This document shows, piece after piece, positions 711 through 63,689 of a stretch of 64,000 nucleotides of DNA. The notes beneath the pieces are model-generated. The model did no database searches. It was not told the origin of the DNA and was given only the letters and a program-made list of their open reading frames with translations. Every line of letters begins with the position of its first letter. Positions within the stretch are counted from its first letter, which is position 1. Position numbers and translations under genes: made by a program. The DNA comes from a virus: the IMG/VR virus record IMGVR_UViG_3300014208_000003, positions 32,001 through 96,000 of that record; one strand, written 5' to 3'.

Positions 711-3047
711 ATGACAAACGTAGTGATAGTTAGTGCAGGAACAAACGAAATTATATCAGGCGCACCACATCTAAACGGGCCTTACTTTCCTGTTAAATAT
801 TTTCTTCTAGCATATGATCCATCTTTCGATAATACTATACATTCAAACGCTAATTTAACAACAGATTCACTACCATTTTCAGCAACATCTTTAACTGGTG
901 ATACTAACGGTGTTCAACATTCCGGACATCTTATTTTTAATATTCCGGGAGCATACACAATCTCTTCGGAACAGTTTCTATTATCCGGTGGTGGAATAGG
1001 TGTTGGACAGGGTTATAATGGTACAGATACAATTTCGGGTAATGCTTATACTTCTTTAACAGATATAAATTTACTATTCGGAAATTCTCTTGTTAATTGT
1101 TTTAGTGCCGATGCTTTACCCGTAGCTACCGGAACTGTTGGGGAATGGTTTTTGGAAGATGCTAGTACATTCGCTGTTACCGAAAATATATCAGGTTCAA
1201 AAACTTCTCCGTTCCTTGCCACAAAATCAAATTATTTTCAAATTTCTAGTTACAGTCCTATTGGTGTTGCTGGAACGGATCAATTAAGAGGTCTATTTAA
1301 ATGCCGTGTTGATAATAGTATTGGTAATTTTAAATTCAATAAGGTAGCACTATATACAACAACTTATGATGAATCGGGTGTTGAAACTACTAATCCTCCT
1401 ATACTGGTTGCTATGGCTGCATTAAACGAACCAGTAAGAAAAACAACAGGAAGCGGAAATATAGCAAACGTAGAAATAGATGTAGAGTGTGAATTTAATA
1501 TAGCAAACACCACAAATACAATTTCATATCTATCACAGGATTATTGGATAAGAGCTAATAATGCTACTTATGCTGGTGGTACTGATACTGTTGGACTTTA
1601 TTATAATGGTGATGTTGTTGTAGGTACTTCTGGAGATTCTGACTGGCTACCTTCTGCAAAATTTAATGTAACAGATGGTCTTAAACAACAGATGAGATTG
1701 AATAATATTTTTGGTCATCAGTATGTAGATTTCAATGTTCAAAACGATGCTTCAATGAAAATATCTACAAGTGGTTCTGATGAAATGCTTTTGACATTAT
1801 TCAAAAAGTCCGGAACATCTGTATTTGGAAATGATATACAAATATTAGATTATGAAAATGGTGATTTGTATAATGAAGGAAAAACATCATTAATAGGTCA
1901 ACAAATAATAATAAGCGGAGGATTTTACACCGATGCCTCTGAAGCACCTACATCATCTAAAAATCAATATATTAAATTATTCGATAAAGTAAATGGTGAT
2001 TCTATAGGTCAAGAAATTTTCGGAATGAGAACTTCTAATTTTGGTGATGTGTATGGTTGTAAGATTTCTATTTCAGCCGATACAACAATAAATAATACTA
2101 CAAAAAATACTTATGGTTTATATGTTTCGTTAGCATCCGGATTAACAACAACTACAGCGGGATATAACGAAAAATTATTTGCGGCATATTTCGGAACAGG
2201 AGCAGTACAGTTTAACGATACAGTATACTTAAAAGGAACCACAACAGTTTCTGGCCCTACTGTGTTTGAAACGGGTGGATATATATTGTTTAACACGGGT
2301 TCTTTTGTCGATACGGTATTGCCGATAATAGGAACAGATGGTGCTAGTCCCGAAATTAGATTTAATGATTCAAATTGTTATATAAAAAGAGATAGTAATA
2401 ATATAATTATTAAAAACGGTATCAGTAATATATATTTAAATTCTAATAATGTTCGTTTTCAATCAGGAACGATTATATCTGCGGGTTGTTATTTAGATAC
2501 AGATAATTTAAGCGGTGCGGATAATGAAGTTGATGTTTATAGTTTGATTAATGAGCCATCGATAATATTTCAAAAATCACAATATTTAACAACAGGCACG
2601 TATATATATTTATCCACAACATATACAGCGTTAGAATCTATAATGTTTAACATTTCCGGTTCCCCATTATATTCGGATGATATTGTATGTCAGTATGATC
2701 AAGAATTACCTTTTTCACCCAAAGTCTTTAAAACGGGTTATTACGAAATTGAATTGTCTTTACAAAATTTTGATGTTGGTTTTAGTGAAGTTGCAGTAGA
2801 TGTTTCTGGCACAGCGGAAAATTTTTCTGATAGTTCGGAAATATCGAATATGGTTGGATTTGTTAATTTCAATCAAGAAAAGGATATGAATTTTAAATTT
2901 ATAATTAAAATTGTTACATTGGGTTTGGTTAGTGATGGGAGAAACTGTACTTATATTCAAACAAAGTTGAAAATTGGTAGTGATATTGATAACGAAAAAA
3001 TAGATGGTTTTTATATGAAATGTAAATATTTAGGAACTTTACGATGA
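711..3047 (+). CDS. Tail fibre / baseplate-attached structural protein
   Basis: 778 aa, rich in G/T/S/N; GNFKFNKVALY...LVAMAAL resembles tail-fibre N-terminal attachment domains; late promoter upstream. Confidence 0.55.
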   Translation: MTNVVIVSAGTNEIISGAPHLNGPYFPVKYFLLAYDPSFDNTIHSNANLTTDSLPFSATSLTGDTNGVQHSGHLIFNIPGAYTISSEQFLLSGGGIGVGQGYNGTDTISGNAYTSLTDINLLFGNSLVNCFSADALPVATGTVGEWFLEDASTFAVTENISGSKTSPFLATKSNYFQISSYSPIGVAGTDQLRGLFKCRVDNSIGNFKFNKVALYTTTYDESGVETTNPPILVAMAALNEPVRKTTGSGNIANVEIDVECEFNIANTTNTISYLSQDYWIRANNATYAGGTDTVGLYYNGDVVVGTSGDSDWLPSAKFNVTDGLKQQMRLNNIFGHQYVDFNVQNDASMKISTSGSDEMLLTLFKKSGTSVFGNDIQILDYENGDLYNEGKTSLIGQQIIISGGFYTDASEAPTSSKNQYIKLFDKVNGDSIGQEIFGMRTSNFGDVYGCKISISADTTINNTTKNTYGLYVSLASGLTTTTAGYNEKLFAAYFGTGAVQFNDTVYLKGTTTVSGPTVFETGGYILFNTGSFVDTVLPIIGTDGASPEIRFNDSNCYIKRDSNNIIIKNGISNIYLNSNNVRFQSGTIISAGCYLDTDNLSGADNEVDVYSLINEPSIIFQKSQYLTTGTYIYLSTTYTALESIMFNISGSPLYSDDIVCQYDQELPFSPKVFKTGYYEIELSLQNFDVGFSEVAVDVSGTAENFSDSSEISNMVGFVNFNQEKDMNFKFIIKIVTLGLVSDGRNCTYIQTKLKIGSDIDNEKIDGFYMKCKYLGTLR

Positions 3048-3415
3048 TTAAAATAAAATTATTAACAGATAAAAAGATAGTTATTGAGTCATTGAAGCGT
3101 ATGGGTATTGCTAATGTGTCTTGTAAAATGTTGTATCCTTCTTGTTACTTATACGAAAAAGATAATGAGTTTTACGTAGTTCATTTCAAAGAAGCATTCA
3201 AATTATTTTCCGAAGATGCTTTTGATGATATGACGGATATTGATTTCGAAAGAAGGAATGCTATTATATTCTTATTGAAAAAATGGGGTATGGTAGATGT
3301 TCCGGAAGCTGATTTGGAACCTCATAAGATATCGGTTTTTGTATTACCTCATAGTCAAAAACAAGGTTGGTATATTAAACATAAAATAAATTATAACTCA
3401 CTATGTCCCAGATAA
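3044..3415 (+). CDS. regA: Translational repressor RegA
   Basis: ESLKRMGIAN...LYPSCYL...YVVHFKE...D.ERRNAI..LL..WG matches T4 RegA. Confidence 0.9.
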   Translation: MIKIKLLTDKKIVIESLKRMGIANVSCKMLYPSCYLYEKDNEFYVVHFKEAFKLFSEDAFDDMTDIDFERRNAIIFLLKKWGMVDVPEADLEPHKISVFVLPHSQKQGWYIKHKINYNSLCPR

Positions 3416-5324: not shown

Positions 5325-6899
5325 TTGATGATAGGTATTGTTGTAATTTCGCATAATCGTGAATCTCAAATTAAAGAAGTATTAGAATCGTTGAAAGATA
5401 GTGCGGATGTTCTGGCAGTTGTAAATGATGGCACTCCCTATTCACCAGAAGTCTATCCCGAATATTTTCATTTAATACAACACGAAAAACCTCTCTCTGT
5501 AGGTATTGCAAAAAATTCCGGAATGAAATATTTAATGGAAAAAGGTTGTGAGCATATTTTTACTTGGGAAGACGACCATATACTAACCGATAAATCCCTC
5601 ATACAAAAATACATTGATTTATCAAAAGTTTCAGGAATAAGATTTTTTAATTATGGTTTTCATGGTGGTGCAAATCTTCTTAATAATAAACCGAATTCAA
5701 AATTAGTAGTAGAATATGATAACGATTTGAGATTAGCAATTTGCGAACACTGCGTGGGAGCCATAACATATTATCATAAATCCGTTATAGATAAATGTGG
5801 CTATCACGACGAACGTTTAAATCATAATTGCTGGGAACATGTTCTATATGCGTACAATGTTATCAAGCAAGGATTTCATCCACCTTTTTGGAACTTTGTA
5901 GATCTAGCAGATTCTTGGAAACATGTCAAAGAAATAGGTACGGTCGATACTACTTCGGTTATTAGAAAATCGCAAGAGTGGACAGATAATATGAAAAGAG
6001 ATAGAGAATACATCATTTCTAAAATAGGGATGGATATATTACAGGTTCCGAAAGTTTCCAATCAATTCGTATATAAGTGGCTTGAAAATAAACAAAAAGA
6101 AGTTAATGGTTCTAAGTGTGAAAATGTACTATATCTCAAAACAAAAGAAAAGCTAGACGATGTAACAATAATGATTCCTTACAACATCGATACCAAAGAT
6201 AGAACAACTAATTTAAAACTGTTATTGGAATACTTAAATAAAAATTACGAAACAAACATATTAGTAGCGGAACAAAATACAGAATGTGAGATGTTAAAAA
6301 CCTTTGTTGAAAATGGGTTTTGTAAAAGGTTATCGGTTAATACTGGTGATGAAAAATTAAACTATAAAACTAAGTTAATGAATGAATTGGTTAAGGCTTC
6401 CGGAACATCAATAGTAATACAGTGGGATGTTGATTGTTATATATCTCCAGAGAAGGTTTTAAAGGGTGTAGAATTGATTAGAAAAAATAAGGAACAGTTC
6501 ATCCTTCCTTTTGATGGTAAGTGCTATAACGTGCGTAAAAACAACTTCGAAGCATTCTTTAATAGTGAATTAGATCATAACAAGATGGATTTATATTCTA
6601 CTACTTCTTGTGGAGGTGTTTTCATATTCAATAAGAAATCCTTAATTGAAATAGGTATGTATAATGAAAAACTTAAAGGTTGGAGTTATGATGACGATTT
6701 TTTACGGATTTTAATATTGAAATTGGGTTATAAAATTGAAAGGCTAACAGGAAGCATCTATCACCTCGAACATGACAGAAACGAAAATAGTAGTTCCAGA
6801 AATCCTTACTATAATGTTAATCAAGAACTTGTCGTAAAACTTTCTAAACAGACTAAAGAAGAACTACTATCCGAAATCAAAACTTGGGATTGGTTATGA
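5325..6899 (+). CDS. Two-domain glycosyltransferase (GT2-like + GT7-like C-terminal domain)
   Basis: VVNDGT, AKN.G, WEDDH; second domain WDVDC and GMYNEKLKGWSYDDD..YHLEH. Confidence 0.8.
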   Translation: MMIGIVVISHNRESQIKEVLESLKDSADVLAVVNDGTPYSPEVYPEYFHLIQHEKPLSVGIAKNSGMKYLMEKGCEHIFTWEDDHILTDKSLIQKYIDLSKVSGIRFFNYGFHGGANLLNNKPNSKLVVEYDNDLRLAICEHCVGAITYYHKSVIDKCGYHDERLNHNCWEHVLYAYNVIKQGFHPPFWNFVDLADSWKHVKEIGTVDTTSVIRKSQEWTDNMKRDREYIISKIGMDILQVPKVSNQFVYKWLENKQKEVNGSKCENVLYLKTKEKLDDVTIMIPYNIDTKDRTTNLKLLLEYLNKNYETNILVAEQNTECEMLKTFVENGFCKRLSVNTGDEKLNYKTKLMNELVKASGTSIVIQWDVDCYISPEKVLKGVELIRKNKEQFILPFDGKCYNVRKNNFEAFFNSELDHNKMDLYSTTSCGGVFIFNKKSLIEIGMYNEKLKGWSYDDDFLRILILKLGYKIERLTGSIYHLEHDRNENSSSRNPYYNVNQELVVKLSKQTKEELLSEIKTWDWL

Positions 6900-7726
6900 G
6901 GGTTCGTTTAGTAGATAATCAGTTTCAGCCTAATAATCGTGCAGGAAATGGTTTGATAGAAGGCATTCAGACAAAAATAGAATGGACAAGAGATTTAAGC
7001 CAACCAACAGATATAATATTTTTCACCGATACTTCTTTTAATAGGGTTACGGAATTTAATGCAAAGTATAAGATAGCATGGGTTTTAGAATCACCAGACA
7101 TAACGCCATATCAAAGAAATTGGTTAAGACAGAATATTGATTTGTATGATAGAGTAATAACGTTTGATGAGGCACTATTAAGAGAATTCCCGAAGAAGTG
7201 TTTGTTCTATTTATTAGGAGGCACTTGGATAAAAAAAGAAGATCAGAAAATATGGGATAAAACAAAAAACACTTCTATAATTGCTTCTGTGAAAAATTGG
7301 ACTTCCGGACATAAATTCCGTCATGAGATTGTAAATAAGTTCCGGAATAATATTGATATGGTTTGTGGGAATGGTTATCAAAAAATGGATTATAAGTTAG
7401 ATGGTTTAAAAGATTTCCGATATTCCTTTATTATAGAAAACACAAATAAACCATTCTATTTTTCGGAAAAGCTTATTGATTCTTTTTTAACAGGAACTAT
7501 ACCAATATTTTTCGGAACAAGTGGTATTGAACAGTTCTTTGATGTGAGAGGAATTGAAGTTATAAATACTATTGCCGATATAGATTTTTCAAAGTATACA
7601 GAAAAGAACTATATATCAAAAATGGAATATGTTAAAACTAATTTTGAACTTGCTAAAAAATATGCTATTACCGAAGACTATATTTATGATAATGTGATTG
7701 TTAAACATTTTTGGGATTGTCTATGA
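6884..7726 (+). CDS. GT10-like (fucosyltransferase-type) glycosyltransferase
   Basis: YSFIIEN...YFSEKLIDSFLTGTIPIFFG signature. Confidence 0.75.
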   Translation: MGLVMRVRLVDNQFQPNNRAGNGLIEGIQTKIEWTRDLSQPTDIIFFTDTSFNRVTEFNAKYKIAWVLESPDITPYQRNWLRQNIDLYDRVITFDEALLREFPKKCLFYLLGGTWIKKEDQKIWDKTKNTSIIASVKNWTSGHKFRHEIVNKFRNNIDMVCGNGYQKMDYKLDGLKDFRYSFIIENTNKPFYFSEKLIDSFLTGTIPIFFGTSGIEQFFDVRGIEVINTIADIDFSKYTEKNYISKMEYVKTNFELAKKYAITEDYIYDNVIVKHFWDCL

Positions 7727-15192: not shown

Positions 15193-16014
15193 ATGGAAAA
15201 TCGAGAAAATTTAGAACAGAACGAATTTTATGTTTATGTATACCTTGACCCTAGAAAACCCGGATTATATAAATATATGAATACAGAAATATCCGGAACA
15301 TATAATTCAGAAACAATTCCGGAATTTTGCTTTGAATATTTGCCGTTTTATATCGGTAAGGGCCACGGAGATAGATTAAGATCACACTTACATCAAAATA
15401 AAACCAGTGTAAGAAAAGAAAATATTTTCAAATCTAATAAAATAAAATCAATAATGGAAGAAACTAATTCTGAACCTATTATAATAAAATATAAAGAAGG
15501 ATTGTCGGAAGTTGAAGCATATGATTTGGAAACTACTATGATTTTATCTATAGGAAGGAAATATACAAATCCAAGCGGCCCGTTAACAAATATAGCGGAT
15601 GGTGGTGCTAATCCTCCTAAGTGGAATAAAGGTAAAACGGGTGTGTATTCTCCGGAACTTATCAAACAAATTTCGGATAAACTTAAAGGTCGTAAATTTT
15701 CGGAGGAAACATTACAGAGGATGAACGAAGCAGCAAAAAGAAGACAAGAAAAATATACACACGAAGATTATAAAAGATGGAATTTAAAAAAATTAAAAAA
15801 ATATAAATTTGAAAAAGATGGAAAAATAATAATAATTGAAAATTTAAAACAATATTGTAAAGATAATAATTTATCACATACTGTTATGGTGAAAATATTT
15901 AATCGTGGTGTTTATAGAATTTCTAAAACTATAAACGGAATTATTGAAATACACGAATGCGAATCGTATAAAGGTTACATACAAATTAAAAATGAGGAAC
16001 AATATGACAGTTAA
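15193..16014 (+). mobile_element. Free-standing GIY-YIG homing endonuclease with NUMOD3-like repeats
   Basis: YVYVYLDPRK...FYIGKG..R..SH, LTNIADGG, WNKGKTG..S.E, KGRKFSEET. Confidence 0.75.
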
Positions 16015-17008
16015 AACAAAAACAGCACTCGTAACCGGAGCGGGTGGATTTATCGGGAGTAACACGGTTAAAAGACTTAAGAAAATGGGATATTGGGTAC
16101 GAGGAGTTGATTTAAAATATCCAGAATTCGAACAAACAGAGGCAGATGATTTTATTATAATGGATTTACGAGATGATAAAAATGTTATAAGAGCATTGAC
16201 GCTTGATAATCTTAACGAGAAGTTTGAATTGACTTTCTGCTATGCCGCAGATATGGGCGGGGCGAAATATATTTTTTCTGGGGAACACGATGCTGATGTT
16301 ATGGAAAATTCTGCTCAGATAAATCTTAACTTTGCGAGACACCATGATAAAATAAATAAAATGTTGTGGAGTAGTTCGGCTTGTATATATCCTCTCGTTA
16401 ACCAAATGGATCCCAATAATCCAAGCTGTGCTGAAGATACTTGGGATAAGGGCGCTTGCGATTCCCCGTATGGTCACGAGAAGGTTTTTAGCGAACAGTT
16501 GTATCAATCATACAGAAGAAATTACGGTCTTAATGTAAAGATAGTTAGATTCCATAATGTATTCGGAACAAACGGTACTTATGAACCACTGAAATCCAAA
16601 GCACCAGCAGCGACTTGCGTAAAGGTAATAGAAGCTCCGGAAAATGGTGAGATAGAAGTGTGGGGAACTGGGGAACAAACTCGTTCATTCATAAATATTT
16701 CCGATGCGCTCGATGGTGTTTTTAAATTGTTAGACTCAGAAGATTTTCACGGCCCTGTCAATATAGGTTCCGAAGAGATGATTTCGATAAATGATTTAAC
16801 AAAGATGGTGATAGATATTTCCGGAAGAACCGATTTGACTATTAAGAATGTAGAATCAAATTGTATTGGTGTTAACGGAAGAAATTCAGAAAATACCCTT
16901 TGTAGAGAAAAACTAAAATGGGAACCTAAAATGTCTTTAAGAGAAGGTATGGAAAAATTATATGCTTGGATCTACAAAGAAATTAAAGGTGTAGAGTTTA
17001 AAAAGTAA
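16004..17008 (+). CDS. GDP-mannose 3,5-epimerase-like NAD-dependent epimerase
   Basis: LVTGAGGFIGS, AADMGGA.YI, SSSACIYP, YGHEK, RFHNVFG, KAPAA.C.KV; GAGG before ATG 16004. Confidence 0.85.
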   Translation: MTVKTKTALVTGAGGFIGSNTVKRLKKMGYWVRGVDLKYPEFEQTEADDFIIMDLRDDKNVIRALTLDNLNEKFELTFCYAADMGGAKYIFSGEHDADVMENSAQINLNFARHHDKINKMLWSSSACIYPLVNQMDPNNPSCAEDTWDKGACDSPYGHEKVFSEQLYQSYRRNYGLNVKIVRFHNVFGTNGTYEPLKSKAPAATCVKVIEAPENGEIEVWGTGEQTRSFINISDALDGVFKLLDSEDFHGPVNIGSEEMISINDLTKMVIDISGRTDLTIKNVESNCIGVNGRNSENTLCREKLKWEPKMSLREGMEKLYAWIYKEIKGVEFKK

Positions 17009-17532
17009 TGCAAGATCACAAATGGTTTGATTATCGTCGGCAGAAGTTCCAGATATATTGTTCCGGAATTTCTGTCGATGATTTTATTAGAGTATATTCT
17101 GTATGGCGTGAGAGATATTATAATCCAGAAAAAATAACCCGATATGCCGACATGGTTTGGAATATATCTGTCAAAACTAATGAAGAAGCAAATAAGATAA
17201 GTTCTATAGATAAAGATATTAAAGTTCTTGTTACCGATAATGAATTTCCTATGGTAGAGTTATTCAAGACCTTTCCGATATTATTTCACCAGTATATTCA
17301 TGTGTTAATGTTCAAGCCAATAGAGCCTCCTAAATACTGGAATAAAATTTTGATGGAGTTGTACCTTACTAAACAAATAAACAAATTCCTACGCTATATT
17401 AGACCTCTTCCTGTTGATTTTGTAGTGTGTACCGGAAAGCAGATTAAACAGCATCCTAGAATATTGAAAAGAGTATGGGACGGAAAGATCAAGGATATGT
17501 TTTCCGCAAATGCTTTTAAGAAGATGATTTAA
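17008..17532 (+). CDS. Hypothetical protein
   Basis: 174-aa ORF translationally coupled to the epimerase. Confidence 0.6.
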   Translation: MQDHKWFDYRRQKFQIYCSGISVDDFIRVYSVWRERYYNPEKITRYADMVWNISVKTNEEANKISSIDKDIKVLVTDNEFPMVELFKTFPILFHQYIHVLMFKPIEPPKYWNKILMELYLTKQINKFLRYIRPLPVDFVVCTGKQIKQHPRILKRVWDGKIKDMFSANAFKKMI

Positions 17533-17572
17533 TTCTCTTGTTCCGGAAAATGTTTTGATTATATTCTATTAA

Positions 17573-17644
17573 AGAGGTAAGGAAAGTAAAAGGAGCATGG
17601 GAAAGAATGGTTCGAAACATTCATAAGATACCGCACCTGCCTCT
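17573..17644 (+). ncRNA. Possible small structured RNA / tRNA leader with T-loop hairpin
   Basis: AGAGGTAAGG pairs with CCTGCCTCT; inner GAATG-GTTCGAAA-CATTC; follows TTGTTC-N16-TATATT. Confidence 0.3.
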
Positions 17645-17650
17645 CTTTCC

Positions 17651-17724
17651 GCTCCTGTAGCACAATTGGCAGATGCAGAAAACTTAAAATTTTCAAAGTA
17701 GTGGTTCGAATCCACTCAGGAGCA
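17651..17724 (+). tRNA. tRNA-Leu (TAA), short variable loop
   Basis: GCTCCTG/CAGGAGC acceptor, GAAAA-CTTAAAA-TTTTC anticodon arm, AGTGG-TTCGAAT-CCACT. Confidence 0.88.
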
Positions 17725-17746
17725 TATTTCAAATAAAGGAACGATA

Positions 17747-25592: not shown

Positions 25593-25630
25593 CTCTTCCG
25601 GAATCATTATCAAAATATGTTCCGGAAGAG
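25593..25630. repeat. Intergenic paired TTCCGGAA element / hairpin
   Basis: CTCTTCCGGAA...TTCCGGAAGAG; similar pairs at 32327-32357 and 39313-39342. Confidence 0.55.
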
Positions 25631-25746: not shown

Positions 25747-26529
25747 ATGATAAAAGAATCAATTTTCGATCCTATTCAAAAAGAACTTTCAAAAGATGTC
25801 TGGAATAATAACCAACTAATTCCTGCTATCAAAACCCAAATCATAAACACTTTCTCAAACTTCCTGAATAAACACAATCTAAAACAAGTTATCAAATCAA
25901 TGAATGTTCTAGGATCAATAACAGGATATCAATACACACCAACTTCCGATATTGATGTGAATGTTGTCCTAGACCTTCCGGAAGAATCCCTGAAAGAACT
26001 ATATAAAGACTTGCCAAATAACATCTTAGCAACAAATACCAAACATCCTATCAACTATTATATTTCAACTATCTGGAAACCCGAATGGTCAAAAGAATCT
26101 AATGGCGTTTATAATATTCTAAAAAATGATTGGCAAAAACTTCCTGAACAACCAAAAACAAACCCAGACAATAATCTTAAACTAGTTTCAGAAATATCCA
26201 GATTCTTCACAACAGGTCTAGATTCAACAATATCCGAATTTTTCCGAGATCTAGACTTCTATCAAACAACTAATAACACAGAATATAAAAAACAAAAATT
26301 CCAAGAACTAAAAGAAGACTATATCTCAATCCAACTAGCACAACACATCCTCCACCAATTCAGAGGAGAAGCATTTCAAAATAATCCATTCCCAATAACT
26401 ATCAATATAACTTCTGCAAATGAATCTATTAACAACATGATTTATAAGTACATAGAGAAATTAGGATACCAAGACACTATCAACAGAATCTCCGGAATAG
26501 CAAAAGAACTCAATCTATCTGCCTCTTAA
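25747..26529 (+). CDS. Pol-beta-superfamily nucleotidyltransferase, late gene
   Basis: LGSITGYQYTPTSDIDVNV (GS...DxD); TCTAAATA 5 nt before ATG. Confidence 0.75.
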   Translation: MIKESIFDPIQKELSKDVWNNNQLIPAIKTQIINTFSNFLNKHNLKQVIKSMNVLGSITGYQYTPTSDIDVNVVLDLPEESLKELYKDLPNNILATNTKHPINYYISTIWKPEWSKESNGVYNILKNDWQKLPEQPKTNPDNNLKLVSEISRFFTTGLDSTISEFFRDLDFYQTTNNTEYKKQKFQELKEDYISIQLAQHILHQFRGEAFQNNPFPITINITSANESINNMIYKYIEKLGYQDTINRISGIAKELNLSAS

Positions 26530-26794
26530 ACCTTGCTAAATCAATTTCAAAAAATGGATTAGAAATATATTCCTGAACACTTTTTAAAATATCTTCCGGA
26601 ACATTCTCTATATATGTCCTATTTCGTTCATAACTATCCGCCAATAATGAATCACACTCTATAGTACAACTTTTAGCACTCATTAAATAACCCACATAAA
26701 TATACTCGATCACCACGGACTTTTCTGAATGTATTCTTTTCTCTATCACAAACTCAAAAATAAAATCCCAATTTAAAATATCAATTATTTTCAT
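26510..26794 (-). CDS. PE...PF-family paralogue (long spacer)
   Basis: VPEDILKSVQEYISNPFFEIDLAR. Confidence 0.75.
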   Translation of the reverse strand: MKIIDILNWDFIFEFVIEKRIHSEKSVVIEYIYVGYLMSAKSCTIECDSLLADSYERNRTYIENVPEDILKSVQEYISNPFFEIDLARFKRQID

Positions 26795-27081
26795 TTTGAC
26801 TGACTATATCTTTCCAAATCAATATCGAAAAATGGTGACTTAATATATTCTAAAAGCTTCTCCGGAACAGAAGACAGATTAATCTCATAAAAAGTCTGAT
26901 CCGCATAAAAATACCTTTCGCCATTATCATAACTAAATTTTATCTCATCTTCATAATTCCAATACTCTACATCAATCTTTTCCGAATAAGTGTACCAAAT
27001 ACAATAAGCACTTCTGCCATTTTCATAATTAGAATAAAATTTTCCCAATTCGCGTGTATTACTTTCCATACTTCCTCGCAA
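26791..27081 (-). CDS. PE...PF-family paralogue (short spacer)
   Basis: VPEKLLEYIKSPFFDIDLER. Confidence 0.75.
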   Translation of the reverse strand: MRGSMESNTRELGKFYSNYENGRSAYCIWYTYSEKIDVEYWNYEDEIKFSYDNGERYFYADQTFYEINLSSVPEKLLEYIKSPFFDIDLERYSQSK

Positions 27082-27310
27082 TATCTATCTCTAAGAAAGG
27101 TGACTCAACATATTTTCTAAGAACCTCCGGAACATCATCAACAGGAACTTCTTGAACAATATTGCCATTATAACAATGAGCTATATAAAAACCGTTAATA
27201 CTTATTAAATCCATTCCTCGCAACTCTATATCCAAACTATGATCATACGTATACCAGTAAACATTTATATCGTTCTTGTAATATCTCCCAATCTTTCGGT
27301 TCAAATCCAT
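27059..27310 (-). CDS. PE...PF-family paralogue (short)
   Basis: VPEVLRKYVESPFLEIDIAR. Confidence 0.75.
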   Translation of the reverse strand: MDLNRKIGRYYKNDINVYWYTYDHSLDIELRGMDLISINGFYIAHCYNGNIVQEVPVDDVPEVLRKYVESPFLEIDIARKYGK

Positions 27311-27597
27311 TATATTTCATTCTTTCTTAGCCACCGATCTTTCCAACCTATCTTCTGCTTATATCTTTCAAAATCTATCTCAAAGAAAGGATCATCAAGC
27401 TTCTTTTGAAACATTTTTCGAATCTCTTCCGGAACATCATCAATATCTACAGTCTTCTCAACAATAATAGTTTCTAACGATTCTGACAATACTCTAAATT
27501 CTAAACTATGACTAAGGAATATATAATTATAATTCTCTATCATATCTTCCTCTAAAACACATTCCCAACAATTGCCCCACTTTAAAAATCTCACCAT
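27310..27597 (-). CDS. PE...PF-family paralogue (long)
   Basis: VPEEIRKMFQKKLDDPFFEIDFER. Confidence 0.75.
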   Translation of the reverse strand: MVRFLKWGNCWECVLEEDMIENYNYIFLSHSLEFRVLSESLETIIVEKTVDIDDVPEEIRKMFQKKLDDPFFEIDFERYKQKIGWKDRWLRKNEI

Positions 27598-27615
27598 AAT
27601 TATTCTCCCAACACG

Positions 27616-27903
27616 TCAATACATTCCGATCTTTAATCTCTCCAATTCAATATCTAAAAATGGATCTAACAACTTATCAGAAAACACTTTAACAACATCT
27701 TCCTGAACAACATCAACCAAACATCTTTCTAACACCAATGACCTACAATTACACCTATCAAGAGTAACATCATTCAGATTATCTTTAAAACATCCCATAC
27801 TAATATAATCAACACGATCTTCAATACAAGACATCCATAATACTTTCTCATATATATTTTCCCACCTCAACACATCTCCAACTTTAATCATATGTTCTAT
27901 CAA
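27616..27903 (-). CDS. PE...PF-family paralogue (long)
   Basis: VQEDVVKVFSDKLLDPFLDIELER. Confidence 0.75.
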   Translation of the reverse strand: MIEHMIKVGDVLRWENIYEKVLWMSCIEDRVDYISMGCFKDNLNDVTLDRCNCRSLVLERCLVDVVQEDVVKVFSDKLLDPFLDIELERLKIGMY

Positions 27904-28195
27904 TCTCCCTTTTCAAATCAATCTCCAAAAAAGGATCAGAAAAGATATTCCTGAAATCTTCCGGAACTTCTGACTCATCAACCCGTACACAACATTTTTC
28001 AAATCCCTCATCTATTAAAAAGAATCCATACCTTCCAACATAATGAAAACATATATAGAATCCCGAAATCCCAACCCATAAATGTATATGAATATCCTTT
28101 AACCACCTGTAATATAAATCATCCTTCTTATACCAATTCATTTCCCACCCACAAACTAGCACCCTCACATTCCAACCTATTCCCAACAGTATCAA
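27884..28195 (-). CDS. PE...PF-family paralogue (short); start probably at MNWYKK (~28141)
   Basis: VPEDFRNIFSDPFLEIDLKR. Confidence 0.75.
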   Translation of the reverse strand: MILLGIGWNVRVLVCGWEMNWYKKDDLYYRWLKDIHIHLWVGISGFYICFHYVGRYGFFLIDEGFEKCCVRVDESEVPEDFRNIFSDPFLEIDLKREIDRTYD

Positions 28196-28508
28196 ATAAA
28201 ATCACACGACTATCGCAAACACCTATAGCACAATGCCAAACACTTCCAAAAGCATCATTACTAAAACACTCATCAACTATAACCTTCTTATCTCTAAAAC
28301 CATCCTCAAATCCAATATATTCAAAACTGCTTATAACATCCCTAACTCCATACTTATCCCTAATATAATCCCTCTCAACATCATTCCTAACAACCATTAA
28401 ATATCCCAACCCACTCTTCAATAACTCAATAATAGAACTTGTCTTACCAATATTACAAGGAGCTATCACCAAACCACCTTTTATAATCTCTTCCGTTATC
28501 CCATTCAT
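28128..28508 (-). CDS. Minimal P-loop/helicase-like protein inside the array
   Basis: IAPCNIGKTS Walker A-like, VIVDEC Walker B-like; no family motif. Confidence 0.5.
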   Translation of the reverse strand: MNGITEEIIKGGLVIAPCNIGKTSSIIELLKSGLGYLMVVRNDVERDYIRDKYGVRDVISSFEYIGFEDGFRDKKVIVDECFSNDAFGSVWHCAIGVCDSRVILFDTVGNRLECEGASLWVGNELV

Positions 28509-30980: not shown

Positions 30981-30984
30981 TCTT

Positions 30985-38902: not shown

Positions 38903-39274
38903 TTACTTTGTTGCCGAGTATGCTTCAATTACTTTTTCTATTGTAAAAAATTCTGGGTTGATGAATGCTAGAATTGTTGGTTCTACGTTGAAAATAATAC
39001 ACAACAAAGATATCAATACAATCAAACCACTCACCAATAATCCAACTATATAAAAAACATTATCTTCTTTTTCTTTTTCAAGGAAATTATAAAATATTCC
39101 GAATATAACTCCGAATATAGCAAAAAGACATGTACTATAAACCATTGCCAGATATTGTTTAGCTACAGAATATTTTATAAACTGTTCACTAATATTTTGC
39201 ATATGAGGAACCATTCTAGAAACAATACCTTCCATTTTTGAGAAAGCCAGATTTACAGAATTCGTGTCTAACAT
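38903..39274 (-). CDS. Membrane protein
   Basis: Two hydrophobic helices; AAGGAG SD. Confidence 0.6.
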   Translation of the reverse strand: MLDTNSVNLAFSKMEGIVSRMVPHMQNISEQFIKYSVAKQYLAMVYSTCLFAIFGVIFGIFYNFLEKEKEDNVFYIVGLLVSGLIVLISLLCIIFNVEPTILAFINPEFFTIEKVIEAYSATK

Positions 39275-39354
39275 TTTTGAAACTCCTTTTTGAATAATTA
39301 TTTTGAATCTTGTTCCGGAACATCATTAAGAAATCTTCCGGAACTATTTTTTTT

Positions 39355-45955: not shown

Positions 45956-46405
45956 TTATTCCTTATTCATTAAAATATCAAAGTGGTCAAACGCAAATTT
46001 CTTTTTCTTGATATATAAATCCGAATCATCTCTCCAAAATATTTCCTTCGCGTCGTCCCTTGCTATAATATTTAGAGTATCTTCCATAGTTAGAATAGGA
46101 ATGCATTTGAACACTACCGATATAGTCCAGCCTCTCGGATCTCTGTTTGGAGTATCTGCTATGAAAACTTGTTGTAATAATGATGGTAGCAAACTTAAAT
46201 TCGTTTCTTCTTTAAGTTCTCTAATAGCAGCTTGAATAATTGTTTCACCTTCATTAACAAAACCACCGGGAAGAGCATAACAATCTTTAAAAGGTTCTGA
46301 GGCTCTTTTTATAAGTAGTGTTTGATGAGTATTTTTAATATCGTTGTATCTTTTCACAATCACATCCACCGTCAAAGCAGGTCTGGCATAATCATATTCA
46401 AACAT
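45956..46405 (-). CDS. Nudix hydrolase, ADP-ribose pyrophosphatase / NrtR-type
   Basis: ALPGGFVNEGET..AAIRELKEETNL, RDPRGW, AFDH. Confidence 0.9.
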   Translation of the reverse strand: MFEYDYARPALTVDVIVKRYNDIKNTHQTLLIKRASEPFKDCYALPGGFVNEGETIIQAAIRELKEETNLSLLPSLLQQVFIADTPNRDPRGWTISVVFKCIPILTMEDTLNIIARDDAKEIFWRDDSDLYIKKKKFAFDHFDILMNKE

Positions 46406-46898
46406 ATAGATTATTCTCCTTAATATAGTTCAAAACATTTTCCGGAACTAAACCGTTAATAGGTCTTTTATTTTTAATCTTTTCACGAATTATTGTTGAA
46501 GAAATTGGTAGATAATCTTTTCTCCTGTACTGTTTAACGATACAATTTTCTTTAATATATTCCGGATTCTTCCAAGTAGAAATATCCCAATCATCACCAA
46601 CAAAAAGATATAACGGTAAATCGGTTTCTTCTTTTTTATAATGTTTAATAAGCTGGTAAGTGTATTGTTTCCGAATGTCTCTTGGAAGAACGTTTGATAA
46701 TCCTTGATCAAATATACCTAAACAACACATTTGTAATCTTTGTTCATACGGAAGACATTTTTTATATGTTGGTTTATAAGTAGTTATCAGATCAAGCCTA
46801 GCAATATAATCAAAAGAAGCTATCTCGGAAATGATTGAAAGATGGCCATTATGGAACGGATTTGCGGAAAGTCCAAATATACCAATACCTTTTTCCAT
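46398..46898 (-). CDS. nadD: Nicotinate-nucleotide adenylyltransferase
   Basis: GIFGLSANPFHNGH, VGDD...WK, ISSTIIR, VPENV..YI....LY. Confidence 0.85.
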   Translation of the reverse strand: MEKGIGIFGLSANPFHNGHLSIISEIASFDYIARLDLITTYKPTYKKCLPYEQRLQMCCLGIFDQGLSNVLPRDIRKQYTYQLIKHYKKEETDLPLYLFVGDDWDISTWKNPEYIKENCIVKQYRRKDYLPISSTIIREKIKNKRPINGLVPENVLNYIKENNLYV

Positions 46899-47200
46899 TA
46901 CTTCCCCTTTAACAAAAATTGCTTTTTAATATACTCGTTTGTGGCTGTTGTGTCTATAATTACTTTGTAGATTTTGTTCTCGTAAAGATAATGTTTGTCG
47001 AGAATTTTCTGATTATATTCATAGAAGCTGTTTGACGTTAACTCTTCCGGAGATGATTTGAACAGTATAATAAAGAAAAATACCAACGAAACTAAACAAG
47101 TCATTACAGCAACATTTTTATCATCTTCGTCAATAGAAAAAATTATTACCGCAACACTAACCAAAATTATCACAATTGAAACCAAAAAAATAATTAACAT
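46898..47200 (-). CDS. Membrane protein
   Basis: Two TM segments. Confidence 0.55.
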   Translation of the reverse strand: MLIIFLVSIVIILVSVAVIIFSIDEDDKNVAVMTCLVSLVFFFIILFKSSPEELTSNSFYEYNQKILDKHYLYENKIYKVIIDTTATNEYIKKQFLLKGK

Positions 47201-47730
47201 AGAATCTCCCTCGTTTTTCTTACATTTACACCAATATCATAAAAATGTTTAATTGTTTCTTCTGTTTTATCAAGTCCAGCGGTAGCATCATTAACCAGAT
47301 ATATTTGTTTATTCTCTACCCATTCTTTTTCAATCAACCCGTCTATAAATGCTTTCACACAGATATCGGTAGCAATCCCACTTACAATAATTCTTTCTTC
47401 TGCTTCAAAGGCATATTTCAGTTTGTGTATAAAAACATCTCCGTCTTTTTTATCCCATACATTATAAGTTTGTTTGTGTAGATTAATATTCCCATCAACT
47501 TCAAAATAATTATTAGCACCAGAAGAATATTTCAAGCAATGTTCCGGAAAGATTTTGAATTCTGGATCATTAACACTATGCCTATCAGAAGTTGTTAATA
47601 TTGTTTCTCCATTCAATATAGCATAACCATAGAGAGCATGAAGATTAACCATTATTTTAGATGCTTCCGGAACATATAGTTTACCATTAGGATTCAAAAA
47701 ATCATATTGGGTATCTACAAAAACTATCAT
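47194..47730 (-). CDS. pncA: Nicotinamidase
   Basis: VDTQYDF, G.LYVP, D.H, FPEHC, GIATDICV. Confidence 0.85.
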   Translation of the reverse strand: MIVFVDTQYDFLNPNGKLYVPEASKIMVNLHALYGYAILNGETILTTSDRHSVNDPEFKIFPEHCLKYSSGANNYFEVDGNINLHKQTYNVWDKKDGDVFIHKLKYAFEAEERIIVSGIATDICVKAFIDGLIEKEWVENKQIYLVNDATAGLDKTEETIKHFYDIGVNVRKTREILC

Positions 47731-47732
47731 GA

Positions 47733-48230
47733 TTAATTCCTTTCCTTTAATCCATTTAGTTTTTCAATTACTTCTGCTGCTGTTGTAAAAAATATTCCTA
47801 TACCTCCAGCTTGATTCCATTGTCTGATATTTGGTTCATAATCATCTATCAAAACATCATTCTTATTATTAACCCAAAATTGTTTATTAGCTGCTTTCTG
47901 AGAAAAATTTAAAGGCACATCTATATTGCGATTTTTTAACCATATCTCTTTACCATATCTAGCACCTTCTTTATCTGGATTTGAACCACCAAGAGAAGTT
48001 AATATTTCTACATTTACCAAGTCCTGTAAATAATTCCACAATTTCTTACCTTCTGGATGCCATTCGAGATCAGTATAAAATTTTGCTATATTACCTTGTT
48101 TTTGAATATGTTTCCAGAGATCTAATTCCGGATCACCTTCTCTTAAATCTTCTATTCTAGTCTTACCATCGATTTCAAATATGGCTCGATCGAAATCACA
48201 CAGAACACCATCCATATCACAATAGATCAT
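47733..48230 (-). CDS. HAD-family 5'(3')-nucleotidase-like protein
   Basis: IYCDMDGVLCDF, ILTS, LIDDY..NI..W..AGG.GI. Confidence 0.75.
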   Translation of the reverse strand: MIYCDMDGVLCDFDRAIFEIDGKTRIEDLREGDPELDLWKHIQKQGNIAKFYTDLEWHPEGKKLWNYLQDLVNVEILTSLGGSNPDKEGARYGKEIWLKNRNIDVPLNFSQKAANKQFWVNNKNDVLIDDYEPNIRQWNQAGGIGIFFTTAAEVIEKLNGLKERN

Positions 48231-48231
48231 T

Positions 48232-49083
48232 TCAATTCCTTTCAACATAACAAACAGGAGGCATATTATTTTTGAATTCGTATTTAACATGTCTTGTGAT
48301 AAAAATGTTAAAAACCTTCTTTTGTTCAGGAGTCATTTCATCATATACTTTTACTGAACAACCATCTATCGAACCATTATCCCGAATTTGCTTTTTAACA
48401 TAACACCTCTGACCACCAAGCATTGATTCAAAAGTTTTCATAGCCCATTCCAAATCATCGTAGGAAGCTCCCAGTTGGCTTTCATCACTTCTACTATCAC
48501 TCCATAGCTCATCTGTTGGAACTGCCTTTGTAATAGCTTCTGATACGCCTAGAAATGAAGCTAGTTCTCTCACTTCGGACTTCATGAGATCACCGATGGG
48601 ACTAATATCTACGCCTCCATCTCCATACCGCGAAAAAAATGAAATTCCCGTATCTTCAATTTTATTTCCTGTTCCGACAACTAATCCACTAATTGTATTT
48701 GAAAACATATATAAAGAACACATGCGGATTCTTGAACTTAAATTTGCATAAGTAAGTTCCGGAACATCGTTGGGATATGTTTTAAGCATCTCATTAAAAG
48801 GAATACTCAAATCAATTTTATACACTTCAACGTTTGGATATTTCTCTTTCAACCAGTTACAGTGTTCCGAGGCTCTTGTTGTAATTTCTGATTCTTTACG
48901 ATTGATAGGAAGTTCTACTAAAATTGTTTTAATACCAGTAATAGCACATAATGTAGAAACTAATCCCGAATCAACTCCACCAGAAACACCAACAACGAAT
49001 CCTTTTGTCTTTGCTGTGTTGTTATTATAATCCGTTAACCATTCTGTAATCTGATTCTTAACATTCTCACAATCCATTTTCAA
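48232..49083 (-). CDS. nadE: NH3-dependent NAD+ synthetase
   Basis: GVSGGVDS, NLSSRIRM, GTGNKIE, YGDGGVD.SPIGDL.KSEV, DESQLGASY. Confidence 0.92.
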   Translation of the reverse strand: MKMDCENVKNQITEWLTDYNNNTAKTKGFVVGVSGGVDSGLVSTLCAITGIKTILVELPINRKESEITTRASEHCNWLKEKYPNVEVYKIDLSIPFNEMLKTYPNDVPELTYANLSSRIRMCSLYMFSNTISGLVVGTGNKIEDTGISFFSRYGDGGVDISPIGDLMKSEVRELASFLGVSEAITKAVPTDELWSDSRSDESQLGASYDDLEWAMKTFESMLGGQRCYVKKQIRDNGSIDGCSVKVYDEMTPEQKKVFNIFITRHVKYEFKNNMPPVCYVERN

Positions 49084-49113
49084 AATCTCCTTTTAAAGTA
49101 ATATAACCACTTT

Positions 49114-50274
49114 TTATTTTAATCCGAACGTTATTTTCAATCGTTTTTCAAAAGCACTATCTTCACACATTCCTTTTCCTTTTGAATCGGATATTTTAGC
49201 AACAGGAGAACCATTTACTTTTGTTAGCTTCATGACTATTTGTAACGGTTCTATTCCTGTATTGTTTGTGAAATATGTTCCGATCCCAAATTTAACATCA
49301 ATGAACGGATGATTGGTTGTTAGCATATATCTAAAAATATCATCACATGTTTTTGGTGTAAGTCCGTCTGAAAATAATAATTCTAAGTTCGGTTCTTCTG
49401 CTTCTGATTCACCGTAATGAGAAAGAACCTTATCGATAAATTCAAAAGGACTTCCGGAATCATGCCGAATAGTATTGAAATTATTTTTAAAGAAATCATC
49501 CCAATCATTCAGGAAAGCATCTATACCAATACAATCCGAAAGTGCTGTTGAAAGTTTGCCTCGGAATGTTAAAAGCCAATTGTTCAAAGCATCTATCTGA
49601 AAGTTTCTTAGATTATGTGAAAGGACTTGGAATGCCTGTAAATATTCATGTGCCATACTTCCGAAACATTTCAAATTATGTTTCATTGCAAAAAATACAT
49701 TAGATGTTCCGGAAAGATTCTTACATGATTTTATACAGGTTTCGTGCCACTTCTTTGATAGCCTTCTTCGAGTTCCCATATCAACAAAACTAACACCTAA
49801 ATTTTCACAATCAATATTAAAAATGTCTAGTCTTAATCTGGCTTCTTTCATGTCTACTTTTTGATGTTTAAAATATATCTCGTTAACAATAGCCAGTATA
49901 GGAACTTCTGCAAAAACAGCTATATCCAATCTGCCTTCAACATCAATATTCAACTCATTATTCCGATCATAAATTGCAATATGGATGTCATTAAGATCTA
50001 TACGAAGAAGAAATTCATTAATAAAATCATCATCAAATAAATTTAACGAATGAAGATATCCAAGTTCTTCCGGAATATTGCATTTAATGTTTTGCCATAG
50101 TTTGATCTCTTTCTCTATTTCTTTTTTATATGGTAGGAGATCTTTTGCATTACGACACTTGAATTTATATTGTACAACAGGGGTTTCAATATTCATTCTC
50201 TGACAATATTTTCTATAACTATAAGACATAGAAAACTTATAAAGATCTGTGTCTAGAAATGACGTGATTATCAT
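49114..50274 (-). CDS. pncB: Nicotinate phosphoribosyltransferase
   Basis: DTDLYKF, DMGTRRR, GTSNV, GSMAHE, RHDSG, FSDGL, FGIGT, VAKISD. Confidence 0.92.
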   Translation of the reverse strand: MIITSFLDTDLYKFSMSYSYRKYCQRMNIETPVVQYKFKCRNAKDLLPYKKEIEKEIKLWQNIKCNIPEELGYLHSLNLFDDDFINEFLLRIDLNDIHIAIYDRNNELNIDVEGRLDIAVFAEVPILAIVNEIYFKHQKVDMKEARLRLDIFNIDCENLGVSFVDMGTRRRLSKKWHETCIKSCKNLSGTSNVFFAMKHNLKCFGSMAHEYLQAFQVLSHNLRNFQIDALNNWLLTFRGKLSTALSDCIGIDAFLNDWDDFFKNNFNTIRHDSGSPFEFIDKVLSHYGESEAEEPNLELLFSDGLTPKTCDDIFRYMLTTNHPFIDVKFGIGTYFTNNTGIEPLQIVMKLTKVNGSPVAKISDSKGKGMCEDSAFEKRLKITFGLK

Positions 50275-51582: not shown

Positions 51583-51831
51583 TTATTTCTCAGTAATTAT
51601 TTGAATAGTTCCGATTATTGATATATTTTTATCCAACTCTATCCAATTCTTATAAAAAACAATTTTCTTAACATTCCGGAAAACTCCTACTGTGTCACCT
51701 CCGGAAAATTGAACCACCGTGTATGTTTCTGATTTGTTAGACCGTTGATCTTTTTTATCCGATTCAATTAAAATCAAAGTAACAAAACTGAAAAATAATA
51801 TTGTCCCTATGACTACTAACAAGGCTTTCAT
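51583..51831 (-). CDS. Membrane-anchored hypothetical protein
   Basis: N-terminal TM helix. Confidence 0.5.
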   Translation of the reverse strand: MKALLVVIGTILFFSFVTLILIESDKKDQRSNKSETYTVVQFSGGDTVGVFRNVKKIVFYKNWIELDKNISIIGTIQIITEK

Positions 51832-62441: not shown

Positions 62442-63388
62442 CCAATCAGTTCAAGAATACACGCTGCTATATGGATTTCTTTATCATTAGCGAAAGAATG
62501 CCATTTCATATAATCCGCAATAATTAATATAGCTTTTCCTTGATTTTCTTTAGGAAGCATTGGAATAAGGTTGTCGAATAATTCTCTGTACAAATCATCT
62601 ATATTAACGTTATTTTCGATTATATATTTTCTTGCATTAGTCAGATCCCTATCCATAATAAATTTAAAGAACTGTTCCTGTAAATTTATTGTTGTGAAAA
62701 TATTCGAATCAATTTTCCCATACATTTCGGAATATAGAGAAAGAGTATTAATCATCCGTCTAATATCAGGATAAAATTTCTCGACAACTTTTACCAATAC
62801 GTCTTCATCATAAATTACTTTTTCAAAATCCAATATCCCTTTAAGTCTCTTTAATATTTTTGGTTTTAACTCTTCAACAACTTCTTTCAAATCAAACGCA
62901 AAAGGAATATTCTGGCAACGCGATTCTCTGAGAGGTTTAATAATTTTATGAATATTATTTGAAGTAAGTATGAAACGACAATATTTATGATACTCTTCTA
63001 TAAATGCTTTCAATGCGTCTTGGAACGTATCAGATGCACGATCACACTCATCTAATATCACAACCTTCATTTTTGTTTTAGACCCTATTCCGACACTCAT
63101 TACAAACCGTTCTATTTCGTTCCTGAGTGTATCAATAGAACCGGACTTTGAAGCATTGATGTAAAGATGTTGTGCACCTATTTCTGTACAAAGAGCTTTA
63201 GCAGTAGATGTTTTACCAGTTCCGGGACTTGTACTATAAAAAAGCATGTTCGGAATATCTTTTTTATTAACCTGTTTCGTGAAGAAGGTTTTTAATGTAG
63301 CGGGTAAAACAAGATCCTTAATAGATTTTGGTCGGAACTTTTCTACCCATAATATATTTGCCATTTCTTGTTTACTCATTACATACAC
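62432..63388 (-). CDS. Clamp loader large subunit (T4 gp44 / RFC-like)
   Basis: LWVEKFRP, PGTGKTS, INAS, ILDECD, SRC, YPDIRR. Confidence 0.92.
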   Translation of the reverse strand: MYVMSKQEMANILWVEKFRPKSIKDLVLPATLKTFFTKQVNKKDIPNMLFYSTSPGTGKTSTAKALCTEIGAQHLYINASKSGSIDTLRNEIERFVMSVGIGSKTKMKVVILDECDRASDTFQDALKAFIEEYHKYCRFILTSNNIHKIIKPLRESRCQNIPFAFDLKEVVEELKPKILKRLKGILDFEKVIYDEDVLVKVVEKFYPDIRRMINTLSLYSEMYGKIDSNIFTTINLQEQFFKFIMDRDLTNARKYIIENNVNIDDLYRELFDNLIPMLPKENQGKAILIIADYMKWHSFANDKEIHIAACILELIGCV

Positions 63389-63689
63389 TCTTTCTCAAAT
63401 CTTTCGATGATACATATCCTATAAAAATCTTTTCTGTTTTATAATATTGGGAACATCTTACTAAAAATGATGCGTAGTAATTTCTAAGTTTTTCCGGAAT
63501 TTCTACCCAACAAACAGGAGCTTTTTCTTTGGCTTCTTTAATACCTATTTCTAAATCAAATTTATCACCTTTTTTATAATTCACTAGAGAATATCCAATC
63601 TGAACTCCATTATTAACTTTTTCACCATAGAAGATTCCGAGTCGTTTTCCGTTATCATCTCGAATATAAGAATAAATAAAATTTTGCAT
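63372..63689 (-). CDS. Hypothetical protein
   Basis: IGYSL....DKFD..IG. Confidence 0.5.
   Translation of the reverse strand: MQNFIYSYIRDDNGKRLGIFYGEKVNNGVQIGYSLVNYKKGDKFDLEIGIKEAKEKAPVCWVEIPEKLRNYYASFLVRCSQYYKTEKIFIGYVSSKDLRKSVCNE

Follow-up and report, generated by a model that had tools for sequence, protein, structure and literature searches.

TCCGGA as a highly iterated palindrome in an uncultured T4-like phage genome: a candidate recognition element found together with an orphan methylase

Why does a phage genome that has been purged of almost all comparable palindromes carry one of them, TCCGGA, in hundreds of copies? The question arises from a stretch of 64,000 nucleotides (here called the window), bases 32001 to 96000 of IMG/VR record IMGVR_UViG_3300014208_000003. 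The record (158,262 bp) belongs to an uncultured T4-like myovirus, as judged from its portal, gp23-like capsid, sheath, terminase, family-B polymerase, and gp46-like genes; it carries 123-bp terminal repeats, and its GC content is 31.7% genome-wide and 31.5% in the window. We show below that the excess of TCCGGA is real, is a property of the DNA, and is independent of coding. The reading that we prefer, to which we assign a probability of roughly 0.45, is that a small clade of T4-like phages has its own recognition element at the DNA level, TTCCGGAA with the core TCCGGA, which is read by an oligomerizing phage protein and shielded by the phage methylase P0001.

The sites in the window are distributed as follows.

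921 to 63498, unstranded: 152 TCCGGA sites (89 within TTCCGGAA), found in non-coding DNA and in all three coding frames

Base composition predicts 4.6 copies in the window, where no hexamer is more common than TCCGGA. In the whole genome, TCCGGA occurs 301 times against 11.7 expected (26-fold), roughly once per 500 bases, and TTCCGGAA occurs 160 times against 1.4 expected (118-fold). Both are GC-rich palindromic words of 6 to 8 bp with a genome-wide excess of at least 15-fold, as is typical of HIP1, the highly iterated palindrome (HIP) of cyanobacteria. By frame, 86 of the 301 sites read as Ser-Gly, 35 as NTC-Arg-Ann, and 157 as x-Pro-Glu/Asp, and 23 are intergenic; the density in intergenic DNA (2.8/kb, or 1.7/kb without the dense array B described below) matches that in coding DNA (1.85/kb). 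The initial annotation of this stretch had estimated about 50 TCCGGA copies in its first 26.5 kb (51 were counted), had described the motif as present throughout the window in various frames and between genes, and had likened it to HIP1. The counts agree with the first two statements, and abundance, frame distribution, and codon independence all support the third.

The excess goes beyond codon and amino acid usage, in all frames and in non-coding DNA. Shuffling of synonymous codons within genes, which keeps proteins, dipeptides, and per-gene codon counts, yielded 72 ± 6.6 TCCGGA copies compared with the 279 observed in genes, and pooled and codon-order shuffles yielded 53 ± 6.6 and 31 ± 5, respectively. 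Even the within-gene value is too high, since 157 of the 386 CCG codons are there only as part of the motif. Markov models of orders 0 to 2 predict 12 to 75 sites for the whole genome; the predictions rise to 168 and 282 at orders 3 and 4, since models of that order absorb the motif's own subwords. The proposal that the signal resides in the DNA rather than in codon or protein usage, which was to be abandoned should the excess vanish under a null model preserving codons and dipeptides, is thus upheld by the shuffles.

The rest of the genome shows the classical restriction-site avoidance of phages (PMC6286503), and TCCGGA, 26-fold in excess, shows the opposite. Seventeen of the 24 palindromic hexamers with four G/C positions have observed/expected ratios below 0.3, and eight are absent from the 158 kb (AGCGCT, CCATGG, CCTAGG, CGTACG, CTGCAG, GAGCTC, GCTAGC, and GTCGAC; ~12 expected each), compared with a median ratio of 0.77 for non-palindromic hexamers of the same composition. 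AGTACT and CTTAAG are likewise almost missing. TCCGGA is the sole exception to this purge, in line with the initial annotation, which had contrasted the motif with the usual avoidance of 6-bp palindromes by phages; in a genome so purged, 300 unprotected TCCGGA sites would be out of character.

The motif has also left an imprint on codons and proteins. It occupies 36% of Ser-Gly dipeptides, 52% of x-Pro-Glu/Asp contexts, and 14% of NTC-Arg-Ann contexts, and no dipeptide in the proteome is more over-represented than Pro-Glu (observed/expected, 2.0 to 2.2). The same ratio is 2.4 in the related TCCGGA-rich phage introduced below but 1.14 in outgroup T4-like phages, which argues that the DNA drives the peptide and not the reverse. 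At site positions in core proteins, the outgroups keep the dipeptide in 21% of cases versus 19% for control dipeptides, and the residues that they have at the Pro-Glu and Ser-Gly sites of this phage include Asn-Glu, Pro-Thr, and Ser-Ala. A preference of the sites for conserved dipeptides is thereby ruled out, and many sites therefore arose by amino acid changes. A DNA word can thus override codon choice and alter proteins, to the point of doubling Pro-Glu, despite a pressure to lose palindromes. The most highly expressed late genes are nearly free of the motif, with 0 of 5 opportunities used in the capsid gene, 1 of 7 in the sheath gene, and 1 of 9 in another GC-richer gene, suggesting that the force acting per site is comparable with codon selection. 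The motif-poor genes lie outside the window.

Genome positions 5732 to 6943, 16021 to 17742, 156460 to 157746, and 37 to 735: four motif-poor genes (capsid, sheath, and two others)

These four GC-richer genes (36 to 46% GC) together use 2 of their 26 Ser-Gly and x-Pro-Asp/Glu opportunities; the genome average is ~45%.

The sequence around the sites is organized beyond the hexamer. The favored word is an 8-mer, with T at position -1 in 75% of the sites and A at position +1 in 73%. Further out, occupied sites have symmetric flanks with a 12-bp period (T at -25/-24, -13/-12, and -3; A at -19/-18 and -7/-6). This weak preference for A or T at regular intervals spans roughly 60 bp. This phasing is present in frames 0 and 2, at intergenic sites, and in the related phage, and it is kept in the 185 isolated sites that are more than 40 bp away from any other site or one-off variant. 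Conversely, the 295 unoccupied Ser-Gly and x-Pro-Asp/Glu positions are essentially without it (flank score, 5.19 versus 7.05 at occupied positions; P = 1e-20). The context is therefore specific to occupied sites, as in a binding array, and extends beyond the core and beyond what any enzyme with a 6- to 8-bp site would require.

The sites also keep a distance from each other. No two TCCGGA sites in the genome are closer than 22 bp, and 16 next-neighbor pairs are 22 to 26 bp apart, compared with ~2.9 expected. When random subsets of coding opportunities are taken as the reference, 0 to 1 pairs are found below 22 bp versus 6.6 ± 2.3 (P = 0.004), and 10 pairs are found at 22 to 26 bp versus 4.4 ± 1.9 (P = 0.004). 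Such an exclusion distance and preferred spacing, together with the phased arrays listed here after five of the 16 pairs, are further properties of a binding array.

15292 to 15323, unstranded: site pair, 26 bp apart, within a gene
25597 to 25626, unstranded: site pair, 24 bp apart
31288 to 31316, unstranded: site pair, 23 bp apart, within a gene of a small-protein family
39314 to 39342, unstranded: site pair, 23 bp apart, ~40 bp upstream of the minus-strand gene at 38903 to 39274
51675 to 51705, unstranded: site pair, 25 bp apart
30012 to 30100, unstranded: non-coding array A, seven yTCnnGAA units in a row, one every 11 bp (repeat families D1, D5, and D7)
32300 to 32860, unstranded: non-coding array B, composed of ten complete TCCGGA sites plus one-off copies (at least six), many of them 23 to 26 bp apart

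In array A, full TCCGGA sites at 30025, 30047, and 30069 alternate with units of the TTC(A/T)AGAA type; the array contains no long open reading frame (ORF) and is located upstream of a minus-strand array of small genes. The one-off copies of array B are TTCGGAA, ATCGGAA, TGCGGAA, and TTCCGAA. Just upstream of array B, an HNH endonuclease gene ends at 32295; just downstream, at 32913, a plus-strand array of small family genes starts.

31579 to 32295, plus strand: HNH endonuclease gene (PF13392; E = 2e-8) with one TCCGGA inside, adjoining array B

A 33-nt composite repeat, in which two sites 22 bp apart enclose TTC(T/A)AGAA, is found in direct and inverted orientations at 30023 to 30099 and 32476 to 32731. 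Neighboring array sites could form hairpins with 10- to 12-bp stems, one of which was flagged as terminator-like. Matches in a sigma-70 promoter scan around the arrays were no more numerous than in shuffled sequences. The wider context, the spacing, and the arrays are what cooperative side-by-side binding by a symmetric protein would produce.

Words of the form TTCNNGAA with centers other than CG are not enriched genome-wide, which indicates that the CG center is specific. Among the one-off variants, TTCGGA/TCCGAA (outer C to T) are raised 2.9- to 4.1-fold relative to the outgroup baseline, and TCTGGA/TCCAGA (inner C to T) are at 0.9- to 0.5-fold. This asymmetry would fit one protected cytosine. 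TTCGGA copies have phased flanks like those of full sites and are therefore decayed or weaker members of the TCCGGA class.

Three amino-methyltransferases were identified in the genome, namely P0001, P0002 (DLPY), and a small phage Dam-type enzyme; a C5 methylase and a Vsr-type endonuclease are absent from it.

Genome positions 112261 to 113238 (outside the window), minus strand: P0001 methyltransferase, 325 aa, beta class, with motif IV SPPY as in N4-cytosine enzymes

P0001 is flanked by a primase gene and by a gene for a 219-aa RuvC-like resolvase (phrog_159; E = 1.5e-21). The latter was considered as a restriction enzyme and ruled out on account of its RuvC-like nature. With these neighbors and no restriction endonuclease gene beside it, P0001 is an orphan methylase.

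The closest P0001 homologue among 5.8 billion proteins is P0003 (69% identity), encoded on a 30.5-kb syntenic contig of a T4-like phage that has 25 orthologues in common with the phage studied here (mean identity, 65%). This relative contains 88 TCCGGA copies in 27.5 kb against 1.6 expected (54-fold), evenly spread, and it lacks P0002, whose place is occupied by two genes of the small VPE family described below. In both TCCGGA-rich phages, the methylase gene lies between the primase and RuvC-like genes. In the P0233 contig (seen as a gene list only) and in the more distant relative L417, the two genes are directly adjacent with no methylase between them; L417 has no TCCGGA in 21 kb, and another distant relative, L418, has one in 13 kb. 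A P0001 orthologue and a strong excess are both missing from five further T4-like relatives (four are at background, and G005 is at ~3-fold). The inserted SPPY methylase is accordingly found only in the two TCCGGA-rich phages among the T4-like relatives compared. P0001 homologues of 54 to 56% identity reside on unrelated elements with no TCCGGA excess. Scans of IMG/VR and JGI metagenomes for P0001 gave no match above 46% identity, and a search of viral contigs with pairs or triples of TTCCGGAA gave no further member of the clade; the triple-pattern matches that were followed up are local tandem repeats within single genes and not a genome-wide excess. No close cultured relative was found, and the capsid protein shares no more than 35% identity with those of known phages.

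L417 encodes an unrelated 393-aa SPPY methylase (positions 16322 to 17503) and is devoid of TCCGGA; its top palindrome is CGGCCG, though with just 4 copies (7-fold). A 15-bp tandem repeat containing CTGCAG is present at the end of a 170-kb T4-like relative (L035, record G001, positions 214 to 564). As the CTGCAG excess of this record is largely that repeat, it was ruled out as a comparable case.

The initial annotation had offered several mechanisms, of which a protein binding site has gained support from the phased arrays, spacing, and wider context, and a methylase from the SPPY enzyme restricted to the two rich phages. Nothing in the analysis spoke for or against the other roles offered, a recombination hotspot and packaging. 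Our preferred reading combines the two supported mechanisms. A phage-encoded, two-fold-symmetric DNA-binding factor would read the site, cover roughly 22 to 24 bp, and bind side by side in an 11- to 12-bp register. It would nucleate at the dense non-coding arrays, putative control regions of early small-gene clusters, and at the ~300 single sites. The orphan P0001, an N4-cytosine-type enzyme judging from its motif, would methylate the core and thereby protect the sites against restriction enzymes specific for TCCGGA; the factor may also recognize the methyl mark itself. If each site conferred a small advantage, sites would accumulate wherever the protein allows and partly where the protein did not, and they would be scarce in the late genes with the highest expression, where the choice of codons prevails. 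Direct observations are the excess and its independence from coding, the protein imprint, the lineage restriction, the inserted methylase that accompanies the excess, the spacing of the sites, and their phased flanks and arrays; from these we infer the binding protein, TCCGGA as the methylase target, and the purpose of the mark.

Several points weigh against this reading. No candidate binding protein was identified, and the target of P0001 is not readable from the P0001 sequence. The association between methylase and motif is clear but amounts to one evolutionary event in two related phages, and a search of the TTCCGGAA-rich bacteria described below found no close P0001 homologue. The TCCGGA sites are clumped (coefficient of variation of the spacing, 1.27 versus 1.04), which rules out regular spacing. 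In addition, some of the phased flank signal could stem from ectopic gene conversion between sites, and a mutational or repair drive would also fill every opportunity.

A more far-reaching version, which we regard as doubtful, is that the genome carries a dense bar code of methylated TTCCGGAA read by a phage protein polymerizing in a 12-bp register, a reader resembling SeqA or p6 with a specific nucleation word. If so, phage DNA could be told from host DNA or could be organized for transcription, replication, or packaging, and one methylase acquisition would have begun a build-up that rewrote synonymous sites and ~100 amino acid positions.

The main rival to a bound and shielded site is a ratchet of methylation-linked repair or gene conversion, as in Elhai's HIP1 model, published for cyanobacterial HIPs (PMC4390886). 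After acquisition of a TCCGGA methylase, near-cognate words would be converted to cognate ones and the cognate words protected from decay, with neither a function nor a dedicated binder. Such a ratchet seems to us unlikely, albeit less so than the alternatives that follow. It would account for the coincidence of the excess with the inserted SPPY methylase gene and for the one-off asymmetry, since a raised outer but not inner C to T fits one protected or corrected cytosine; the escape of highly expressed genes, which suggests a weak force, also counts in its favor.

Comparison of the two rich phages bears on the same question. Fourteen of 21 alignable sites are at an identical position in the relative (65% protein identity), and four-fold degenerate third positions agree in just 49% of cases between the two. 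Some shared sites persist despite changed flanking residues, such as Thr-Pro-Glu versus Ser-Pro-Glu and Leu-Pro-Asp versus Ile-Pro-Glu. Where both phages have a permissive context (Ser-Gly or x-Pro-Asp/Glu), ~80% are occupied in each, and joint occupancy of x-Pro-Asp/Glu (13 of 19) equals the 12.6 obtained as the product of the two occupancies. This suggests a general pressure to fill opportunities, with no sign of selection on particular sites, and such near saturation of synonymous opportunities at conserved contexts, with sharing no greater than the product of occupancies, is also what a ratchet would leave. However, an enzyme or repair bias acting on 6 bp leaves unexplained the 12-bp-phased context, the 22-bp exclusion with its excess at 22 to 26 bp, and the 11-bp arrays, and the genome lacks the Vsr-type endonuclease and C5 methylase. 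T4-like phages are not known to have a mismatch repair system, which also counts against the ratchet. For HIP1 itself, comparative work favored selection over biased repair (PMC5861425).

Could the signature instead come from the host? The host would in this case itself be TCCGGA-rich, and the phage motif would be imposed by it or would mimic it, for example, as a Chi-like or uptake-like self mark. We consider this improbable. In its favor, TTCCGGAA is hyper-abundant in two Bacteroidota metagenome-assembled genomes (MAGs), with 3692 copies in 2.9 Mb and 3349 in 2.7 Mb (G015 and G016; loci L229, L251, L225, L267, and L397 to L410), and in the MAG of Ruminococcus sp. UBA7014, with 1027 copies in 2.1 Mb (G019; loci L209, L230, and L411 to L416). 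However, these verified bacterial cases have 42 to 54% GC compared with 31.7% in the phage, and the Bacteroidota TTCCGGAA extends to TTTCCGGAAA, which differs from the wider motif of the phage. The 12-bp flank phasing is absent from the TTCCGGAA-rich MAGs, and the two Bacteroidota MAGs permit pairs closer than 22 bp. Moreover, the trait tracks the phage phylogeny and a phage gene, and the purge of other palindromes is not host mimicry.

In all three MAGs, TTCCGGAA is distributed genome-wide at 0.5 to 1.3 copies/kb (reversed control word, 0 to 108 copies), and the Ruminococcus MAG shows extra TTCCGGAA pairs at 23 to 24 bp. In Robertmurraya siralis (G017; L178, L188, and L260) and in the viral records G010, G011, and G012 (L319, L332, and L354), TTCCGGAA occurs just in local tandem repeats, either within single genes or at a few loci, whose periods are ~21, 24, and 36 bp. 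Searches of the literature for TCCGGA or TTCCGGAA as a phage sequence or an m4C motif yielded nothing relevant.

Explanations of the motif as a side effect of codon or protein usage or of the expansion of a family of small VPE proteins, or as the remnants of a small mobile palindromic element inserted many times, are refuted: most family genes do hold one site in a conserved VPE and Pro-Glu does top the over-represented dipeptides, but the synonymous shuffle falls far short of the observed count, 265 of the 301 sites belong to no family gene, all frames and intergenic DNA are affected, the outgroups have no Pro-Glu excess, and the sites are not insertions. The last point follows from the position of the sites within gap-free aligned codons of orthologues; with no insertions and flanks that are only weakly periodic in A/T, mobile palindromic elements (REP, MITE, or RPE-like) are ruled out. 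The family is arranged mainly in two arrays.

26510 to 29578, minus strand: tandem array of small paralogues (80 to 100 aa) ending in [VI]PE...DPF[FL]EI[DE], mostly with one TCCGGA in the VPE codons
32913 to 35490, plus strand: second tandem array of the small VPE family, with a single TCCGGA in VPE

About 31 family genes (about 80 to 105 aa) were found at 26510 to 36058 of the window and as scattered copies. Their N termini are divergent, and the C-terminal module [VI]PE...DPF[FL]EI[DE]..R is constant; Pfam and PHROG searches gave no match. The initial annotation had linked the motif to the expansion of this family. This link is not supported, because the family VPE is merely one of ~300 x-Pro-Glu/Asp contexts, half of which bear the motif genome-wide; the family holds 36 of the 301 sites, and its removal leaves the excess and the flank pattern unchanged.

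How does TCCGGA compare with known iterated elements? We read it as a HIP-like element with added architecture and a probable shielding or marking methylase. HIP1 (GCGATCGC) and the alternate HIPs of cyanobacteria (Elhai 2015, PMC4390886; Xu, Lawrence & Durand 2018, PMC5861425) have in common with it a GC-rich palindromic octamer that is 15- to 300-fold over-represented at ~1/kb, occurrence in all frames and in intergenic DNA with codon usage no explanation, and enriched one-off variants. HIP1 is also conserved at orthologous positions and associated with a DNA methyltransferase of the same genome, to which the shared site positions and the candidate methylase P0001 may correspond in the phage. 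Unlike HIP1, the element described here resides in a 158-kb lytic-type phage rather than in a cellular chromosome, and its candidate methylase is predicted to be an N4-cytosine-type enzyme of the beta class. The 12-bp-phased context, the lack of pairs below 22 bp, the favored 24-bp pairs, and the dense arrays seen at the phage sites are not described for HIP1. Highly iterated palindromes have been unexplained for ~30 years and, in the literature searched, are described only for cyanobacterial chromosomes. The present system offers a small test case, a 158-kb phage whose relatives either have the excess or lack it and in which a single candidate causal gene sits at a defined insertion place; the spacing rule, phased flanks, and arrays point to a reader protein.

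In phage phi29, protein p6 touches the DNA at 12-bp intervals when monomeric and at 24-bp intervals when dimeric, and in phage GA-1 the interval is 11 bp; phi29 p6, a genome-organizing protein, coats the entire genome and nucleates preferentially in certain regions (PMC10899789). These periods match the 11- to 12-bp units and the 22- to 26-bp pairs seen here, but the analogy is functional only, since phi29 p6 reads a bendability pattern and the phage motif is a specific word. Bacteria also have short palindromic sites that are read by dimers, such as the paired hemimethylated GATC of SeqA and the Noc-NBS, SlmA-SBS, MatP-matS, and ParB-parS systems, in which binding is cooperative or spreading; that of SeqA depends on a methylase and on site pairs on the same helix face. 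However, these organizers have tens of sites or a 4-bp word, and the sites of none of them fill half of the coding opportunities or reshape the proteome, as TCCGGA does. The uptake sequences of Haemophilus (USS) and Neisseria (DUS) serve natural transformation, occur at ~1/kb in coding DNA in all frames, and bias peptide content, and the USS has helically phased AT-rich flanks. Copy density, use of all coding frames, peptide bias, and, for the USS, phased AT-rich flanks are thus common to them and TCCGGA, whereas USS and DUS are non-palindromic and natural transformation has no phage counterpart.

As to the general gene content, an alternative genetic code found no support. The window also encodes, at 45956 to 50274, a nicotinate phosphoribosyltransferase with neighboring NAD-salvage genes, an RNA ligase, an RlaP-type nucleotidyltransferase, a DUF2201 metallopeptidase/VWA protein, and two family-2 glycosyltransferases.

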